Source of the DNA: Candidatus Nomurabacteria bacterium
GTDB lineage: Bacteria > Patescibacteriota > Dojkabacteria > SC72 > JAHDCA01
Length of the DNA: 64,000 bases
Direction of reading: 5' to 3'
Assembly: GCA_020632395.1 (NCBI GenBank)
Contig: JACKFQ010000001.1
Location: 136,762 to 200,761, forward strand
How positions within the stretch are numbered: position 1 is the stretch's first letter; the number at the start of each line of letters is the position of its first letter. Positions 3,519 to 40,186 of this stretch are shown here, in pieces. Below the pieces are notes generated by a model. The model made no database searches. It was not told the DNA's origin and saw nothing but the letters and a program-made list of their open reading frames with translations. Position numbers and translations under genes: made by a program.

Positions 3519-3729
3519 TTGCGTAACAATAGTATAACAGGAGAGGGTGGTTGTCTAGAGCTACGCCACTATAAGTGGTATTTAGTTTGATGTGATAGAT
3601 TTTATTGATATCGGAACTGGGTTGACCGGTGTACTCTATGTTCACGACGGACCATAGAACGGGAGATCCTCACTGGTGGAATGTTCTGTGGATCATACTC
3701 TCCCTCCCTCCGCACTATAAGTTAGCGGG

Positions 3730-3805
3730 ATGGAGCTGGCGGTGTGATTCGAACACACGACCTAATCTTTACGAAAGATTTGCTCTACCAACTGAGCTAC
3801 GCCAG
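3730..3805 (-). tRNA. tRNA-Thr (anticodon CGT), CCA encoded
   Basis: The reverse complement reads GCTGGCGTAGCTCAGTTGGTAGAGCAAATCTTTCGTAAAGATTAGGTCGTGTGTTCGAATCACACCGCCAGCTCCA. Anticodon loop TTCGTAA. Confidence 0.75.
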
Positions 3806-3887
3806 CATACCGCCGTATATTATCACAATCGATAGATAGCTACTAGACAGCACTTTATATCATCACCACATCATGATAGATTGAAGT

Positions 3888-7321: not shown

Positions 7322-7395
7322 TGGAGCGGGATACGAGAATCGAACTCGTATCTCTACCTTGGGAAGGTGGCATTTTACCATTAAACTAATCCCGC
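7322..7395 (-). tRNA. tRNA-Gly (anticodon CCC), discriminator U, CCA encoded
   Basis: The reverse complement reads GCGGGATTAGTTTAATGGTAAAATGCCACCTTCCCAAGGTAGAGATACGAGTTCGATTCTCGTATCCCGCTCCA. Confidence 0.7.
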
Positions 7396-9618: not shown

Positions 9619-9694
9619 GGGCCGCTAGCTCAATTGGCAGAGCATCGGGCTTTTAACCCGCAGGTTCAGGGTTCGACTCCCTGGCGGCTCACCA
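9619..9694 (+). tRNA. tRNA-Lys (anticodon TTT), CCA encoded
   Basis: GGGCCGCTAGCTCAATTGGCAGAGCATCGGGCTTTTAACCCGCAGGTTCAGGGTTCGACTCCCTGGCGGCTCACCA. Confidence 0.8.
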
Positions 9695-23550: not shown

Positions 23551-23624
23551 GCGGGAGTAGTTCAATTGGCTAGAATGTCTCCCTTCCAAGGAGAAGGTTG
23601 CGGGTTCGACCCCCGTCTCCCGCT
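23551..23624 (+). tRNA. tRNA-Gly (anticodon TCC)
   Basis: GCGGGAGTAGTTCAATTGGCTAGAATGTCTCCCTTCCAAGGAGAAGGTTGCGGGTTCGACCCCCGTCTCCCGCT. Confidence 0.8.
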
Positions 23625-24305: not shown

Positions 24306-25829
24306 ATGAAAGATATAAAACTTCCTACAGTTACTAAGAAAGCAAACTCATCTGATGATTTTGCCACAAATGTCACTATCCAAAATAGTAGTAATACTCC
24401 TTTGAGAACAGTTAAGCCACCTTCAATTACCGGCAAAACTAACGATGATCCTTCACAAAATGTTCCCAAATCTCCTACTGTATCGATCTCAACAAAAAAA
24501 AGTTCCGCTCTAGTAGATGATGCACGACCAAAAAAGGGCGGAACCTCTTCAAAGATCCAATCCGAAGAAAAAAATACTGCTGAATTTCAGAATGACCAAG
24601 CCTCAGTTGCCGACAATAATAATGATACCAATCACCTGAATATTATTACTGATCTACAAAATCCAGATACCAACTCTTCTCACCAAGTCTCAAGTAGTGA
24701 TGATCAGCAACAAGACGCTATACAGCCAAAAACTAATGCCCAACAAAATACCTCTACACAACAACAAACCAACCCACAGGCCACTCCACAGCAACAGATA
24801 GATCAACAACCAGTCTCTAACCACCAGCAAACCGCTACCCAGAAAGCCCCCAATCAGCAAGTACACAATCAGCAAGTAAACAATCAGCAAAACCAAAGTC
24901 AGCAACAACGATCAAGTGGTGCACAGATGCAACAAGGTACTGTAGGGAATATGGGTCTTGGAGGGTTTGGTGGAGGATTGGGTGGAGGATTGGGTGCAGG
25001 ATTTGGTGGAGGCAATACAGGAGGTTTTAGAAATGATCTCGGCGGAGGTGGATTTGGTTCCAATTCCATAGGTGCAGATCCGTGGGCAGATCCGTGGTCT
25101 GACCCTTGGAGCGCAGATCCCCGAGGAGGTCAGCAAAATTGGGGTAATCCTAATGCAAATCAACCACCAAAACAGCTGACACCTGCTGAAAGGGTTGAAA
25201 TGATCGAAAAAGTATATCAGGATGTGTTAAATAGAAAGCCAGATACTCGTGATATTAACTACTATAAATACAGCACACTTGGAGAGAATGAGATCATAGC
25301 TCAACTACTGGTAGGTAAAGAGCACGTCCAATTATTGCAGGATGGGAAGGATTATAAAAAGATGAAGGATAGAGCGGAACAAGCTGAGACTAGAGTGAAA
25401 ATGCTAGAGGGACAAATAAAAGATCAGCTAGAAGAATTCAGTAGTCTCGCAGATCTTCTTGAGGAAAAGAATCGATTAATACAACAGTTACGTAGAGATC
25501 AAAACAATCCATACAGCTTCCAAAGCCCCAAATCCTCAATACCACAGTTTATAGAGAATCATGATACTGGTAAAAAGCTCGATGTTGAGTCAACAACAAA
25601 CGACCAATACGAATCACTCCCGACTGATGATTCTAATACAACGACTCTTGATCCGGATAATCGATCTGGTTCAGATCCAGTTGGTCTACATACAGAAAAG
25701 GAGGTTGACACTTCATCAGTAGCCGGTTTCTCAGTTCCGATGTTTTCTGACAGTATTGGGAGTTCAGCGATTAAAAAACGAACAAAAAGCTTGAAAGACA
25801 AGATAATAGAACTTTTCTCTGTGCAGTGA
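24306..25829 (+). CDS. Low-complexity protein (Q/N-rich, Gly-rich GLGGFGGG tract, DPW repeats) with a DUF4214-like domain and a coiled coil
   Basis: 507 aa. Residues ~130-210 are Q/N/T-rich. A G/F/L-rich tract comes next, then DPWADPWSDPWSADP, then IEKVYQDVLNRKPDTRDINYYKY (DUF4214-like). Confidence 0.5.
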   Translation: MKDIKLPTVTKKANSSDDFATNVTIQNSSNTPLRTVKPPSITGKTNDDPSQNVPKSPTVSISTKKSSALVDDARPKKGGTSSKIQSEEKNTAEFQNDQASVADNNNDTNHLNIITDLQNPDTNSSHQVSSSDDQQQDAIQPKTNAQQNTSTQQQTNPQATPQQQIDQQPVSNHQQTATQKAPNQQVHNQQVNNQQNQSQQQRSSGAQMQQGTVGNMGLGGFGGGLGGGLGAGFGGGNTGGFRNDLGGGGFGSNSIGADPWADPWSDPWSADPRGGQQNWGNPNANQPPKQLTPAERVEMIEKVYQDVLNRKPDTRDINYYKYSTLGENEIIAQLLVGKEHVQLLQDGKDYKKMKDRAEQAETRVKMLEGQIKDQLEEFSSLADLLEEKNRLIQQLRRDQNNPYSFQSPKSSIPQFIENHDTGKKLDVESTTNDQYESLPTDDSNTTTLDPDNRSGSDPVGLHTEKEVDTSSVAGFSVPMFSDSIGSSAIKKRTKSLKDKIIELFSVQ

Positions 25830-36297: not shown

Positions 36298-37443
36298 TCA
36301 TTCCAGAGCTCCTATGCTATTATCTTTCTGCCTTAGATTATTCCTAAGGAAATCAAAGAAAGTATCGTTCTCACTATCATAATAAAGTCCATAATAGTAG
36401 GAAGAACGCTCATTTGCGAGTATTGCTATGGAAGAAATCTTTCCACCGTTTACAACTGTTGCCTCCAACTCTCCGTTCTCATTATATACACTGTTGAGGA
36501 TGGCGTACTTCCCACCATTCTCACTTCTACTATTTAGGATGTCGACAAACAGCTCTAGTGCCTTGTCAGGATAACTATTTTCCAAAGGGGCTATCGGTTC
36601 AAGGATATACTCACGACTATCTGTGATCGAAGATATTTTCAATGCCTGTAATTCTCCCTCATCAGTGGCATAGTATGATGTCACATACTCTACAGGAACT
36701 TTCAAAGTCCAAGGAAAATCTGGCAATAAATCTGTACCTTCAGATGATGCCAGAACCAATTCTCTTTCTATCTCCTGTTTTGCAAGACGACTTAGCCCTT
36801 GTTTAGCATCTGATATTGATAATCGCTCATACCAGATATCGTTAACCCTTTCATATATCCTCAAACCGAGATCTTTACTTGGATTTTCCCAATAATCTCC
36901 ATACATCTCATCCTTTTGTGTTCTGGGAACAAATTTGATGTGGTTCCATCCTCGTTCTGGTAATTCAATCTTGTAATAATCGTATACTGATTGTATATCT
37001 GTACCTAGAGGTATCCTATAGATCGATCGGCCAGATGAAACAAACGTTTCTACTATGGCCTCATCAGAACTATTCGAGAATACATATTCACTAGTCGGGA
37101 ATACAGGTACTGAGTCAAAACCTATAACTGACGTAAGATCCTGTTCGACTACCCCTTTTGATGCTCGCAAACTAATTACCCAGTTGATAGCAGTGTATGA
37201 AGAAACTAATAATCCTAGAACCAACGATAGGTATAAGAAAATTTTCAGTATGCTTCTAAAATATTGACGAAATATACCTCCTCTATAGATCTTTTTCTTA
37301 CCCCTCGTTTTATTTGACCTAGTTAGGATCGATCGACGTCTAGTTTTATAGCTTCCATTTGACTGTTTTTTGGAAAACATAACACTTCGGTCTCGATCAT
37401 CACCTTTTCTTTGTTGTTTTTTTTCTAATTTGAATAATTGCAT
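36298..37443 (-). CDS. Membrane protein with a strongly basic N-terminal tail and an extracytoplasmic domain
   Basis: 381 aa. The N-terminal tail is K/R-rich, followed by a single TM segment (IFLYLSLVLGLLVSSYTAINWVI). Confidence 0.4.
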   Translation of the reverse strand: MQLFKLEKKQQRKGDDRDRSVMFSKKQSNGSYKTRRRSILTRSNKTRGKKKIYRGGIFRQYFRSILKIFLYLSLVLGLLVSSYTAINWVISLRASKGVVEQDLTSVIGFDSVPVFPTSEYVFSNSSDEAIVETFVSSGRSIYRIPLGTDIQSVYDYYKIELPERGWNHIKFVPRTQKDEMYGDYWENPSKDLGLRIYERVNDIWYERLSISDAKQGLSRLAKQEIERELVLASSEGTDLLPDFPWTLKVPVEYVTSYYATDEGELQALKISSITDSREYILEPIAPLENSYPDKALELFVDILNSRSENGGKYAILNSVYNENGELEATVVNGGKISSIAILANERSSYYYGLYYDSENDTFFDFLRNNLRQKDNSIGALE

Positions 37444-37519
37444 GATATAAGAACATATTATAGAATATCATCGTCTTTGTGGAGTGTTTCTGATTTTTAT
37501 TAAAAATACCACTTAACAT

Positions 37520-37590
37520 TGCGGGATCGTCTAATGGTAGGACACCGGCCTTTGAAGCCGAGAATCGGGGTTCGAGTCCCTGTCCCGCAA
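37520..37590 (+). tRNA. tRNA-Gln (anticodon TTG), U1-A72 first pair, no encoded CCA
   Basis: TGCGGGATCGTCTAATGGTAGGACACCGGCCTTTGAAGCCGAGAATCGGGGTTCGAGTCCCTGTCCCGCAA. D-stem GTCT/GGAC, anticodon loop CTTTGAA, T-arm CGGGG-TTCGAGT-CCCTG. Confidence 0.65.
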
Positions 37591-37592
37591 GT

Positions 37593-37830
37593 TGATATCA
37601 TGTCCTATGGACATGATAAGCAACTTGCATACATAGAACGAAAACCCTCGAGCGAAGCTCGAGCAAGGTGAGCCAGTCCCGCACATCCGAAGGATGGCGG
37701 GGAGTCCCTGTCCCGCAAGTGTCCCAAGAGCGTAGCGATTGGCAGACACTCGTGGATCCCACAAGGCGAAGCGTCGCGGCGATCCCGAAACCAGGGTGTC
37801 CTGTACAAGCATAATGGTTGACCATCTATA
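37593..37830 (+). ncRNA. GC-rich (~58% versus ~37% background) hairpin-dense non-coding segment carrying an 18-nt direct repeat of the tRNA-Gln 3' end. Candidate structured RNA or att-site remnant. The strand is not established
   Basis: A perfect 9-bp hairpin sits at 37603-37623. GAA-triloop hairpins follow (CTCGAGC-GAA-GCTCGAG; CATCC-GAA-GGATG). The repeat AGTCCCTGTCCCGCAAGT occurs at 37575-37592 and again at 37703-37720. Three mutually overlapping minus-strand ORFs are probably artefacts. Confidence 0.35.
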
Positions 37831-38129
37831 ACATAGGTTCGAGCAATGCCAACTCCCCTTAAATGAAAATAGAATAAAATTCCATTTTAAAAATATCTGT
37901 TACGCAAATATAAATGCTTTTCAGCACTTTTATACTCACACATAGCTTTAAGCCCTTGATAAATAAGCATTTAATTATGATTTAGATAGGAATAATTTCC
38001 GATTAAAATAAGTAGTCCAGTTGAATGTTACCCTTGGTATACGTATACTTGTTAACGAATGGAGATGAAAATGTTAATCAGTACACAGGTTCAAGGTTAT
38101 ATCAAAGAAAATAGTAATACCTAAAATAT

Positions 38130-39356
38130 TTGGCGAAACCTCTGATGAACAATATGAAAGAGATCTACAAAGTCAATGTTGAAGGTACAAACATCACAGT
38201 ATGTGTTGAAACGTACGATAGATCATATCCTGTAATCTTGTTTATCGCTGGTACCAGTGGGAATTCACTATCTGACAGATTTGATGGACTATCAGAAATG
38301 CTTATAAACGAAAGATTCACATTTGTACGATTCAATTTTCGTGGGCATGAGGAAGGTAGAACAATAGATGAGTACTCACTTAATGACGAACTCAAAGATA
38401 TGAAAGAGGTGATCGAACTACTCGAACATGAAGGATACAATACTCAAAATCTCAGCATACTAGCTAAGAGTTTCGGAGCAGTCAAAGCATTTTGTCTCAA
38501 CAGAGAGTATGGCCTAATAGGTTTACTTTCACCAGCTGTTTTTTTCTCAGAGCGTGGAAATTTAGGACCTATCAGCTCAAAAGAATATAAGAATATAGCT
38601 AGTATTGAAGATATTAATATCCCACTAGATGTACTCCGTAACATTACTGCCCCTGTGTGTATTGTACATGGAGAAAATGACAGTACTATTCCGATAAGTA
38701 ACTCGTCAGAGATCTTCTCAAATTTAGCAACAGTTCATGAAAAAAAAGAACTACATAAAATTCCTGGAGCGAATCACTCGATGTTGGATAAAGCTCAATA
38801 TTCAGAAGCGTATAAACTGATCACAAGCTTCTTCAGAAAATATAGGGATTCGATCTGGTCATATCATTCAATTGTTTGGAAGTTTAAGGATAAAGAGTAT
38901 CTTTTCGATGTAATCACATCATCAAATTTTAAGAAGATAAAAAATATCAGACAAGTATATACCCTCATGTTAAGTAAAGATAAGGATAAAATTATGCTAG
39001 TACATAATACTCAAGGTATATGGATATTACCGGGAGGGGGAGTTGAGAGAGGAGAATCACACATCGATACGATTGTGCGAGAAGTGAGAGAAGAAACAAA
39101 TTGTGATATTGACCTGTCAACTGTAGAGCCGTTGTATTATCAATTGACATATGTTAAGAAACCGTCTGGTAGATGGGAATATCATTCTGCGCAGTTAAGA
39201 TATAAAGCTGTTGTGAAAAAGGAAAGAAAGTTTGTGGAAGACCCAGATAATGGAGATATTGATGAGGTTAGATGGGTTAGTATCGATGAAATTCATAGAT
39301 ATCTTGATTGGGGAAAAACTGTCGATATAATCAAGGAATTACTTCTGGAAAAATGA
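38130..39356 (+). CDS. Alpha/beta-hydrolase - NUDIX hydrolase fusion protein
   Basis: The N-terminal part is an abhydrolase (ILFIAGTSGNS..., HGENDSTIP). The C-terminal part has a canonical NUDIX box PGGGVERGESHIDTIVREVREETNCDI. Confidence 0.6.
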   Translation: MAKPLMNNMKEIYKVNVEGTNITVCVETYDRSYPVILFIAGTSGNSLSDRFDGLSEMLINERFTFVRFNFRGHEEGRTIDEYSLNDELKDMKEVIELLEHEGYNTQNLSILAKSFGAVKAFCLNREYGLIGLLSPAVFFSERGNLGPISSKEYKNIASIEDINIPLDVLRNITAPVCIVHGENDSTIPISNSSEIFSNLATVHEKKELHKIPGANHSMLDKAQYSEAYKLITSFFRKYRDSIWSYHSIVWKFKDKEYLFDVITSSNFKKIKNIRQVYTLMLSKDKDKIMLVHNTQGIWILPGGGVERGESHIDTIVREVREETNCDIDLSTVEPLYYQLTYVKKPSGRWEYHSAQLRYKAVVKKERKFVEDPDNGDIDEVRWVSIDEIHRYLDWGKTVDIIKELLLEK

Positions 39357-39455
39357 ATTTTTTAATCATCTATGATTTATTGTTCTGTACGATCTTATGA
39401 TATAAGACACTACAAATCCGAATATTCCAATGCCACAATTATGTCCCTCCATTCC

Positions 39456-40058
39456 TCACTTCCTACGAGTATAAAGAAAAAGGGTTAAAGAAGAACCAAT
39501 AAATATACCAAGAAGATTTAATACAAAGATAATTATGTACTGCAATGCGAGAGTATAATTATCTGTTGTCATTCCAGCAGTAAAATATGCTATCGGCGGA
39601 ACCAGAGATATAGCTATAGCTACTCCTGCACTTGTATTAGAGGTCCTGTGCCATAACCAAAGAAGCGCACCAACGATTCCCATCAGTATGGCAACTCCTA
39701 GCACGTCAAAAATATTTGGATCTGGTTTAATGATCACATAATCCTTCAGCTGTCCAGCAATCCTCAAAAATGTCCAAAATCCAAAACTAACCAAAAAAGA
39801 TATCGATATCGCAATAAAAAGTGATCTAAACGCTTTCCTAAACCCTACAAGGTCTTTAGAAGTGATATACACAATAGTTGATATCAAAGGATCAAATAGG
39901 GGTGAGACAAGCATTGAACCGATAATGATGAAATCATTATTCATCTTGATCCCAAAAACCGCGAGTAGGCTTGCGACAACGGTGAGTATGATCAGGTCTT
40001 GATCTAACTTCGATTCATTTCTTGCTTTATCTACGAGATATTTTTGAGCCTCATTCAT
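39456..40058 (-). CDS. DUF389-like polytopic membrane protein
   Basis: 200 aa, 5-6 TM helices. The assignment is weak. Confidence 0.35.
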   Translation of the reverse strand: MNEAQKYLVDKARNESKLDQDLIILTVVASLLAVFGIKMNNDFIIIGSMLVSPLFDPLISTIVYITSKDLVGFRKAFRSLFIAISISFLVSFGFWTFLRIAGQLKDYVIIKPDPNIFDVLGVAILMGIVGALLWLWHRTSNTSAGVAIAISLVPPIAYFTAGMTTDNYTLALQYIIIFVLNLLGIFIGSSLTLFLYTRRK

Positions 40059-40186
40059 GTGTCTGATACTAAATTTAATTTAAATTAAAAGAACTTAAGC
40101 GTCGTAACAAATTGCGGTATCAAATTTCTGATATTTTCGAGTAATCTATTGTATTCATACCAAAAACCGCTTCAAAAGCACAACCG

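Follow-up and report, generated by a model that had tools for sequence, protein, structure and literature searches.

The subject of this report is a GC-rich, hairpin-dense segment that directly follows the tRNA-Gln(UUG) gene in 64,000 nucleotides (nt) of DNA from a Candidatus Nomurabacteria bacterium (assembly GCA_020632395.1, contig JACKFQ010000001.1). This whole stretch is called the window, and positions are counted from its first letter. The segment (37592/37600-37830) has 54-55% GC compared to 38.6% in the window overall, and its core reaches 62% (37637-37792) or 64% (37647-37792). It also holds the most GC-rich 100-nt stretch of the window (maximum 0.65). The GC-rich stretch behind the tRNA had been pointed out in an initial annotation of the same DNA and is confirmed here. 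The segment contains an exact copy of the 3' end of the tRNA, a hairpin (H3) that is shared with two distant relatives, several further hairpins and, at its far side, the decayed remains of an older tRNA-Gln 3' end followed by a flank (F) that is also found in a relative (Table 1).

Table 1. Features at the tRNA-Gln locus, with the other tRNA genes of the window
Feature	Position	Strand	Description
tRNA-Gln(UUG)	37520-37590	+	Functional gene, anticodon TTG; ARAGORN; Rfam tRNA model 62.3 bits
O1	37574-37592	+	GAGTCCCTGTCCCGCAAGT; first copy of the exact 19-nt direct repeat
O2	37702-37720	+	GAGTCCCTGTCCCGCAAGT; exact duplicate of the tRNA 3' end, direct repeat with O1
H3	37719-37749	+	GUGUC-CCAA-GA-GC-GUA-GC-GA-UUGG-CA-GACAC; conserved hairpin, 31 nt
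D	37783-37793	+	TCCCGAAACCA; displaced, decayed CCA-type tRNA-Gln 3' end, compared to TCCCGCAACCA in L028, L025, L039 and L043
F	37794-37844	+	Flank homologous to the sequence directly after the tRNA-Gln of L028; local alignment, contiguous with D
H0	37587-37628	+	Two-part perfect hairpin with TAT loop; begins inside the 3' strand of the tRNA acceptor stem
H0, inner stem	37596-37605 and 37609-37618	+	TATCATGTCC / GGACATGATA; 10 base pairs
H0, outer stem	37587-37594 and 37621-37628	+	GCAAGTTG / CAACTTGC; 8 base pairs, perfect
Hx	37647-37663	+	CTCGAGC-GAA-GCTCGAG; terminator-like on the minus strand
H1'	37678-37701	+	CCCGC-A-CATCC-GAA-GGATG-GCGGG; the CATCC-GAA-GGATG part is 37684-37696
GC-rich tail	37754-37785	+	Possible stem GGATC...GATCC around GCGAAGC; predicted only
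U2	37654-37683	+	GAAGCTCGAGCAAGGTGAGCCAGTCCCGCA; degenerate copy of the tRNA-Gln 3' half from the anticodon loop on; weak to moderate support
Six other tRNA genes	908-982, 1245-1332, 3731-3806, 7322-7395, 9619-9694, 23551-23624

Repeat of the tRNA 3' end

The tRNA-Gln has a U1-A72 pair and A73, and its gene ends in ...GCAAGTTGA without an encoded CCA; GTTGA comes next. CCA is encoded in five of the six other tRNA genes of the window, and tRNA-Gly(TCC) is the only one that lacks it together with tRNA-Gln. Among the relatives, which are denoted by L numbers, tRNA-Gln encodes CCA in L025, L028, L039 and L043 and lacks it, as in the window, in L021, L026, L038, L040-L042 and L044.

The first copy of the repeat, O1, spans the T-loop from G57, the 3' strands of the T stem and the acceptor stem, A73 and two nucleotides of the trailer. 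The second copy, O2, begins 128 nt after the first, with 109 nt between the two, and its final bases are the start of the H3 stem. The chance expectation for a second exact copy of a given 19-mer in the window is about 5e-7. The initial annotation had described this repeat and its spacing, and only the length has changed, from 18 to 19 nt; O2 is preceded by GGCGGG, in agreement with that description. In the species-representative genomes the 19-mer has one real match, a plain tRNA-Gln in a metagenome-assembled genome (MAG) of Candidatus Dojkabacteria, and three chance matches. Eight matches in Joint Genome Institute (JGI) metagenomes are all due to chance and fall in coding sequence of unrelated GC-rich organisms. 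No match was found in viral contigs, a collection that is incomplete for this lineage.

Displaced older 3' end

Positions 37783-37844 align with the last 9 nt of the L028 tRNA-Gln, its encoded CCA and the next 52 nt. The sequence of D and F in the window reads TCCCGAAACCA-GGGTGT..TGTACAA..hairpin..ACATAGGTTCGAGC, with ACATAGGTTCGAGC at 37831-37844. With three scoring schemes the Gumbel p of the similarity to L028 ranges from 1e-7 to 2e-5, and a separate alignment gives z = 9.6, while the downstream regions of nine other lineages give scores at noise level. A small hairpin in F, ATGGT-TG-ACCAT (37814-37825), corresponds in position to ATAGTGT-CA-ACACTAT in L028 and differs from it in sequence.

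A CCA-type remnant thus lies downstream of a functional gene without CCA, which shows that the present 3' end of the tRNA is a replacement and that the older end has moved about 190 nt downstream. The locus therefore carries about 190 nt of DNA inserted at the 3' end of tRNA-Gln that rebuilt this end, as in tRNA-targeted integration, and the event itself would have been a recombination. A replaced tRNA 3' end together with a displaced old one is the outcome of site-specific integration into tRNA genes. The flank F is about 75% identical between the window and L028, whereas the X proteins encoded beside the tRNA are only about 35% identical, and F is not present in L025, a close sister of L028 with an identical tRNA. 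This suggests that F is itself probably the end of a horizontally moving island.

Conserved hairpin H3

H3 consists of an outer stem, a 2-nt bulge in the 3' arm (CA or AA), an inner stem of CCAN and NUGG, tandem G.A mismatches and, at the apex, a small stem-loop. Its stem can be extended to 37713-37755 in the window. The same architecture recurs 3' of tRNA-Gln in two Logan contigs, L038 and L039, whose X proteins are 33-34% identical to that of the window (Table 2).

Table 2. Parts of H3 in the three lineages, in 5' to 3' order
Lineage	Outer stem	Inner stem	G.A	Apex	G.A	Inner stem	Bulge	Outer stem
Window	GUGUC	CCAA	GA	GCGUAGC	GA	UUGG	CA	GACAC
L039	ACUUC	CCAC	GA	ACGAAGU	GA	GUGG	AA	GAAGU
L038	GACUC	CCAC	GA	AUAUAU	GA	GUGG	CA	GAGUC

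In the alignment of the three sequences all 11 pairs are formed in each of them, and five pairs have changed on both sides. Column shuffles equalled this pairing in 1 of 500 cases, and sliding the partners destroys it. The hairpins of the window and L039 are 61% identical, and every variable stem position has changed in a compensatory way. The outer stems have no sequence in common among the lineages and yet are always paired. The minimum-energy fold recovers the structure in each of the three sequences.

H3 homology was tested without bias by a covariance model built only from L038 and L039. When both strands of the window were searched with filters off, 37719-37749 on the plus strand was the only significant match (32.5 bits, E about 1e-6) and the next best score was 14 bits. 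A structural descriptor, which was written after the three instances had been seen, found only these three on both strands of 143 kilobases (kb), with 0.2 expected from shuffles. The three-sequence model found no further copy in 171 kb of the window and relatives. Searches elsewhere with exact H3 strings gave no match, and a degenerate H3 pattern gave 37 matches in viral contigs that are ascribed to chance because none of them has both the inner pair and the outer stem.

The inner part of H1', CATCC-GAA-GGATG, is nearly identical to CAGTCC-GAA-GGACTG, which is located directly after the L039 tRNA, and the order of the hairpins is the same. This near-identity over 13-15 nt (rough p about 0.01) suggests H1' as a second element shared with L039. 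Part of the insert is probably functional, because H3 is shared by two distant relatives in the same place and with compensating changes. The initial annotation saw an argument for function in the retained GC-richness. That argument is weak when taken alone, since tRNA-like sequence contributes some of the GC and the exact repeat is probably of recent origin; it is the comparative evidence that carries the functional case.

Neighbouring genes and empty sites

The flanking genes are identical in sequence in the MAGs GCA_020632435.1 (1.09-Mb contig) and GCA_020429305.1. The order dnaE-uvrC-X, tRNA-Gln and, further on, uvrB-mutL is kept in relatives. Protein X has 381 amino acids (36298-37443, minus strand) and no Pfam family, with an N-terminus rich in Lys and Arg followed by a hydrophobic stretch. 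Its homologues are few and 32-40% identical, with 15 matching clusters among 5.8 billion proteins. The tRNA-Gln(UUG) gene is divergent from X and 60-80 nt upstream of it on every contig retrieved except L037. The L037 contig stops inside the tRNA, and those of L038 and L039 end 150-190 nt after it.

Comparison with relatives, as suggested in the initial annotation, finds the segment missing at the orthologous tRNA-Gln in L021, L025, L026, L028 and L040-L044, where an AT-rich spacer or the next gene directly follows the tRNA. In a rough neighbour-joining tree of X, which represents one fast-evolving protein, the window, L037, L038 and L039 form one clade and the lineages without the module form the other.

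The interval between tRNA-Gln and uvrB (37593-40186 in the window) differs in gene content in every lineage, with L021, L025, L026, L028 and L040 compared to the window. It encodes an alpha/beta-hydrolase-NUDIX fusion and a DUF389 protein in the window, DHH, a short-chain dehydrogenase, a kinase and others in L025 and L028, Bro-N, DUF218, dUTPase and patatins in L026, and no genes at all in L021. Variation of this kind is what a tRNA-linked hot spot for foreign DNA or gene turnover shows. The gene next to the segment on its 3' side (38145-39356, plus strand) is the one for the fusion, in which a peptidase S9-like alpha/beta-hydrolase is joined to NUDIX; it has 403 amino acids as called in the MAG.

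Hairpins, strand and terminators

The hairpin that was initially described directly after the tRNA is present as H0, with arms of 10 nt rather than 9 base pairs and nested in an outer stem of 8 base pairs. A short AT-rich spacer separates it from the GC-rich stretch. L038 and L039 likewise have a two-part hairpin that starts from AAGT directly after their tRNA. The two hairpins with GAA triloops named in the initial annotation are found as Hx and the inner part of H1'. The GC-rich tail is not conserved in relatives, and its minimum-energy and centroid folds disagree.

Both strands of the segment fold better than shuffles (z = -3.7 for the plus strand and -4.8 for the minus strand). The fold of the plus strand is slightly more stable than that of the minus strand in all three H3 sequences, with RNA and DNA parameters alike. 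The tandem GA..GA, the 2-nt bulge in the 3' arm and the C-GNA-G triloops are conserved and favourable on the plus strand, which is also the strand of the tRNA. No terminator was called on the plus strand in 37200-38200, and H0 is succeeded not by a T-run but by AAGCAACTTGC. Since the module is located on the tRNA strand with no intervening terminator in the window genome, it is most likely part of the tRNA-Gln trailer transcript. The only terminator-like site in 37200-38200 is on the minus strand, where the hairpin 37663..37647 is followed by GGTTTTCGTT (37647-37637), and a minus-strand transcript may end at this CTCGAGC hairpin.

The initial annotation had left open whether the segment belongs to a known RNA family, and no such family matches. 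An Rfam scan of the window gave seven tRNAs and nothing else. At E up to 10 the locus gave, besides the tRNA, only chance-level hits to mascRNA and mir-62 that overlap the tRNA and H0, and L037-L039 matched nothing other than tRNA. Group I or II intron fragments, signal recognition particle RNA, 6S RNA and transfer-messenger RNA were dropped as candidates for want of an Rfam match and of a partner gene nearby. The same applies to retrons, IS110 bridge RNA, TnpB/IscB guide RNA and TIGR arrays.

A frame of 93 amino acids with an ATG start (37531-37812, minus strand) crosses the GC-rich segment and part of the tRNA and is missing from the MAG annotation. Neither a Pfam match nor a homologue in the protein collection was found for it, and the GC-rich composition almost certainly accounts for its existence. 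Elsewhere in the window, about 110 nt with 53-56% GC (3620-3730, minus strand) extend from the 3' end of tRNA-Thr(CGU) up to the next gene; its fold is not more stable than those of shuffles (z = +0.75), and the 3' end of tRNA-Thr is not repeated in it. Another GC island (25023-25170) is located inside an open reading frame (ORF) of 507 amino acids.

Copy number and contig ends

The segment occurs once in the window, and no copy was found in 107 kb from relatives (the genome has at least 1.09 Mb). With blastn it gave nothing in phage records and one 30-nt chance match in plasmid records. The translation of the long minus-strand frame, which would find spurious ORFs on other copies, had no match in the protein collection.

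In five samples, which come from three projects, Logan contigs (k=31) of the same species stop at 37672. Contigs on the far side start at 37731 (two samples), 37825 (one sample) and 37913 (four samples). Since de Bruijn contigs run 30 nt into a repeat, these ends fit a repeated block at about 37643-37760, and they would fit strain polymorphism from 37673 as well. In L006 the A-run at about 37640 has three extra A.

Other tRNA-like pieces

In local alignment with tRNA-Gln, U2 reaches z = 4.0-4.3 (at most 1% of shuffles), and across the 10 tRNAs tested this similarity is specific to tRNA-Gln. Under stricter scoring it is only at about the 93rd percentile. A whole decayed tRNA-Gln pseudogene at 37721-37792 was rejected because the part that should correspond to the tRNA body aligns with tRNA-Gln no better than noise (z about -0.1 to -0.7 for 37721-37782). 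Positions 37732-37786 on the plus strand, which overlap the 3' half of H3 and the tail, align to the region from D-arm to T-arm in tRNA-Gly(TCC) of the window (score 35), and there is a shorter match to tRNA-Leu. The tRNA-Gly(TCC) match has z = 5.7 for 37721-37782 as one of about 60 tests. A pseudo-tRNA was not accepted on this basis, since the stretch cannot be folded into a cloverleaf and is not recognised by the tRNA model.

No second tRNA was found by the Rfam tRNA model at E up to 10 in 37300-38050, or by ARAGORN. Downstream of their tRNA, L038 and L039 carry no significant copy of it, and short tRNA-like strings in the flanks of relatives (GGTTCGAG and similar) do not reach significance. 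Hence the 19-nt repeat is peculiar to the lineage of the window and lies outside the conserved module.

Discussion

The segment is most likely a decayed or miniature integrative element, with a structured module that would be transcribed with the tRNA. With middling confidence we regard it as the non-coding residue of DNA that was inserted at the 3' end of tRNA-Gln and that carries a self-folding module under selection. Such an element would enter by site-specific recombination between the tRNA gene (attB) and a copy of the tRNA's 3' part that the element carries (attP). Each integration event would rebuild the tRNA and displace the previous 3' end. The coding part might later have been deleted, or the element might always have been miniature, an integrase-less passenger mobilised in trans. 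The module of H1' and H3 is predicted to be transcribed as the 3' trailer of tRNA-Gln and would act as a structured RNA.

Two explanations had been offered in the initial annotation, and each of them survives in part. An att-like duplication left by a lost element that targets tRNA genes is supported in kind by the empty sites, the displaced CCA-type end and the variable interval. However, there is no integrase within about 10 kb and there are 109 nt between the repeats, so what remains is a scar or a miniature element and not an island. A novel structured RNA that shares sequence with the tRNA is supported by the conservation of H3 with compensatory changes, but the 19-mer is outside the conserved part.

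Several observations weigh against the reading as an integrative element with a transcribed module. No gene for an integrase, excisionase, recombinase or transposase is found within about 10 kb, judged by the Pfam hits of the neighbouring genes, and no full-length element with the module is present in viral contigs, phage or plasmid records, which are incomplete for this lineage. The stubs that separate the tRNA-end copies are very short (109 and 62 nt), and U2 is nearer to the tRNA than the exact copy O2, an order that a simple series of integrations does not predict. The conservation of H3 rests on three lineages. In one of these, L038, TTTT comes next to the first hairpin behind the tRNA, which looks terminator-like, and H3 may for that reason not be co-transcribed with the tRNA there. 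Finally, the helices as delimited comprise 104 pairs that are all Watson-Crick with no G-U, in a delimitation that is biased to perfect runs, and the absence of G-U would also fit palindromes at the DNA level.

A more specific proposal is that the roughly 118-nt module at 37643-37760 (comprising Hx, H1', the copy of the tRNA end and H3) is a new miniature mobile or selfish element without ORFs, restricted to the tRNA-Gln 3' end in a clade of small-genome bacteria that are of the CPR (candidate phyla radiation) type. H3 with its tandem G.A would then be the functional core, either as an RNA released from the trailer or as a folded strand recognised at insertion. We put this forward tentatively, as something that may well turn out to be wrong.

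It is rather unlikely that the segment is instead a resident small RNA gene or structured trailer (H1 and H3) that has been inherited vertically from the ancestor shared by the window, L038 and L039, with the copies of the tRNA end arising secondarily and locally, for example through slippage, gene conversion or later integration, independently of the module's arrival. H3 is found in all three lineages of the clade for which downstream sequence is available, whereas the lineages of the other clade all lack it; its strong divergence (61% identity) with compensatory changes fits long-term purifying selection, and neither L038 nor L039 has a significant tRNA-derived repeat. Yet the clade itself comes from a rough neighbour-joining tree of one fast-evolving protein, and the contigs of L038 and L039 end 150-190 nt past the tRNA. 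The position of the module between the tRNA and F also speaks against vertical inheritance: F is about 75% identical to L028 and absent from L025, and if F is recent the module must be later still, unless F integrated at a secondary site downstream of the module. Another view, that the segment is a dead scar made of decayed tRNA-Gln fragments and leftover element DNA, would explain the exact 19-nt repeat, the degenerate tRNA-like pieces U2 and D, the absence of recombination genes within about 10 kb and the absence of the segment from most relatives. GC and hairpin richness would on that account come from tRNA-derived sequence, but H3 is not derived from tRNA-Gln, as 37721-37782 aligns with it at noise level. 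Its pairing is also kept to 100% although the flanking proteins are 33-35% identical, which neutral decay would not achieve, and a dead scar is thus an improbable explanation.

The remaining alternatives place the function in DNA. The all-Watson-Crick helices together with the recurrent GNA triloops keep such a reading open. One candidate is an element that acts as a single-stranded DNA hairpin, such as a non-autonomous relative of IS200/IS605, a repetitive extragenic palindromic (REP)-like unit or the origin of an integrated single-stranded DNA replicon. C-GNA-G triloops occur with GAA three times and with GTA once, and GCGAAGC occurs literally twice. The hexamer ACATAG is found just before the GC-rich block (37631-37636) and recurs about 40 nt beyond that block (37831-37836); however, the right-hand copy belongs to F, which L028 has without the insert. 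The contig ends at 37672 and 37731 match the repeated block discussed above but can be explained equally by strain polymorphism. With one copy in the window, none in the 107 kb from relatives and no HUH transposase or TnpB gene within about 10 kb, we judge this candidate very improbable. The least probable of the explanations considered is that the hairpins are palindromes of double-stranded DNA bound by a recombinase or regulator, with half-sites that change together as the protein evolves. The palindromes are indeed perfect and free of G-U pairs, they adjoin the att-type repeat, and sequence conservation is seen in the half-sites CCAN and NTGG. The outer stems, on the other hand, differ in sequence between lineages while always pairing, and the asymmetric tandem GA..GA, the bulge in one arm and the better fold of the plus strand are typical of a folded single strand and not of a symmetric duplex. 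A candidate gene for a binding protein was not found within about 10 kb.

Among known systems, the locus recalls the attL and attR sites of genomic islands and prophages that tyrosine integrases have inserted into tRNA genes. Williams reportedly described the sublocations within tRNA genes used by integrating elements (Nucleic Acids Research, 2002). The likeness consists of a tRNA 3' part that is directly repeated, with identity from inside the T-loop on, a foreign CCA-less 3' end that replaces a CCA-encoding one, an old end displaced together with its flank, empty sites in relatives and a variable gene interval beside the tRNA. Unlike islands bounded by attL and attR, the locus has no integrase and no cargo genes between the repeats, and its stubs measure 109 and 62 nt. 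Several nested tRNA-end copies are found within 210 nt, and the retained DNA has a conserved folded module. Cis-mobilisable elements (CIMEs) are flanked by att sites and have been described in Streptococcus thermophilus. The segment resembles CIMEs and derivatives similar to miniature inverted-repeat transposable elements in its att-type flanking repeats, its lack of recombination genes and its tRNA-linked hot spot. CIMEs are kilobases long, however, and the segment is about 100-200 nt.

If the module is transcribed, it can be compared with 3'ETS-leuZ of Escherichia coli, a small RNA that is released from the 3' external transcribed spacer (3'ETS) of a tRNA. The structured sequence studied here is likewise directly 3' of a tRNA, on the same strand and with no intervening terminator in the window genome. 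It has no sequence or structure similarity to RNAs of the 3'ETS type, and in L038 the terminator-like hairpin comes before H3. Folded single-stranded DNA is used by IS200/IS605 ends, by REP units with their REP-associated tyrosine transposases (RAYT) and by integron attC sites. The oligonucleotide d(GCGAAGC) and GNA triloops are said to form extraordinarily stable DNA mini-hairpins, according to Hirao and colleagues. The recurrent C-GAA-G and C-GTA-G, the two GCGAAGC and the all-Watson-Crick stems are similar to these hairpins and elements, but the segment is single-copy in the available sequence and has no HUH enzyme or integron integrase and no family-specific end motifs.

Conclusions

To our knowledge, non-coding RNAs and mobile DNA are almost uncharted in uncultivated CPR-type bacteria with small genomes. 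The locus described here is a tRNA gene whose 3' end has been overwritten, from CCA-encoding to CCA-less, and in which the layers of earlier ends are still legible. H3 is a concrete new covarying hairpin motif that can be searched for across CPR-type genomes. It would be a local curiosity if it is confined to the three lineages; if it is widespread, it would represent either a novel small RNA linked to tRNA or a novel miniature integrative element.

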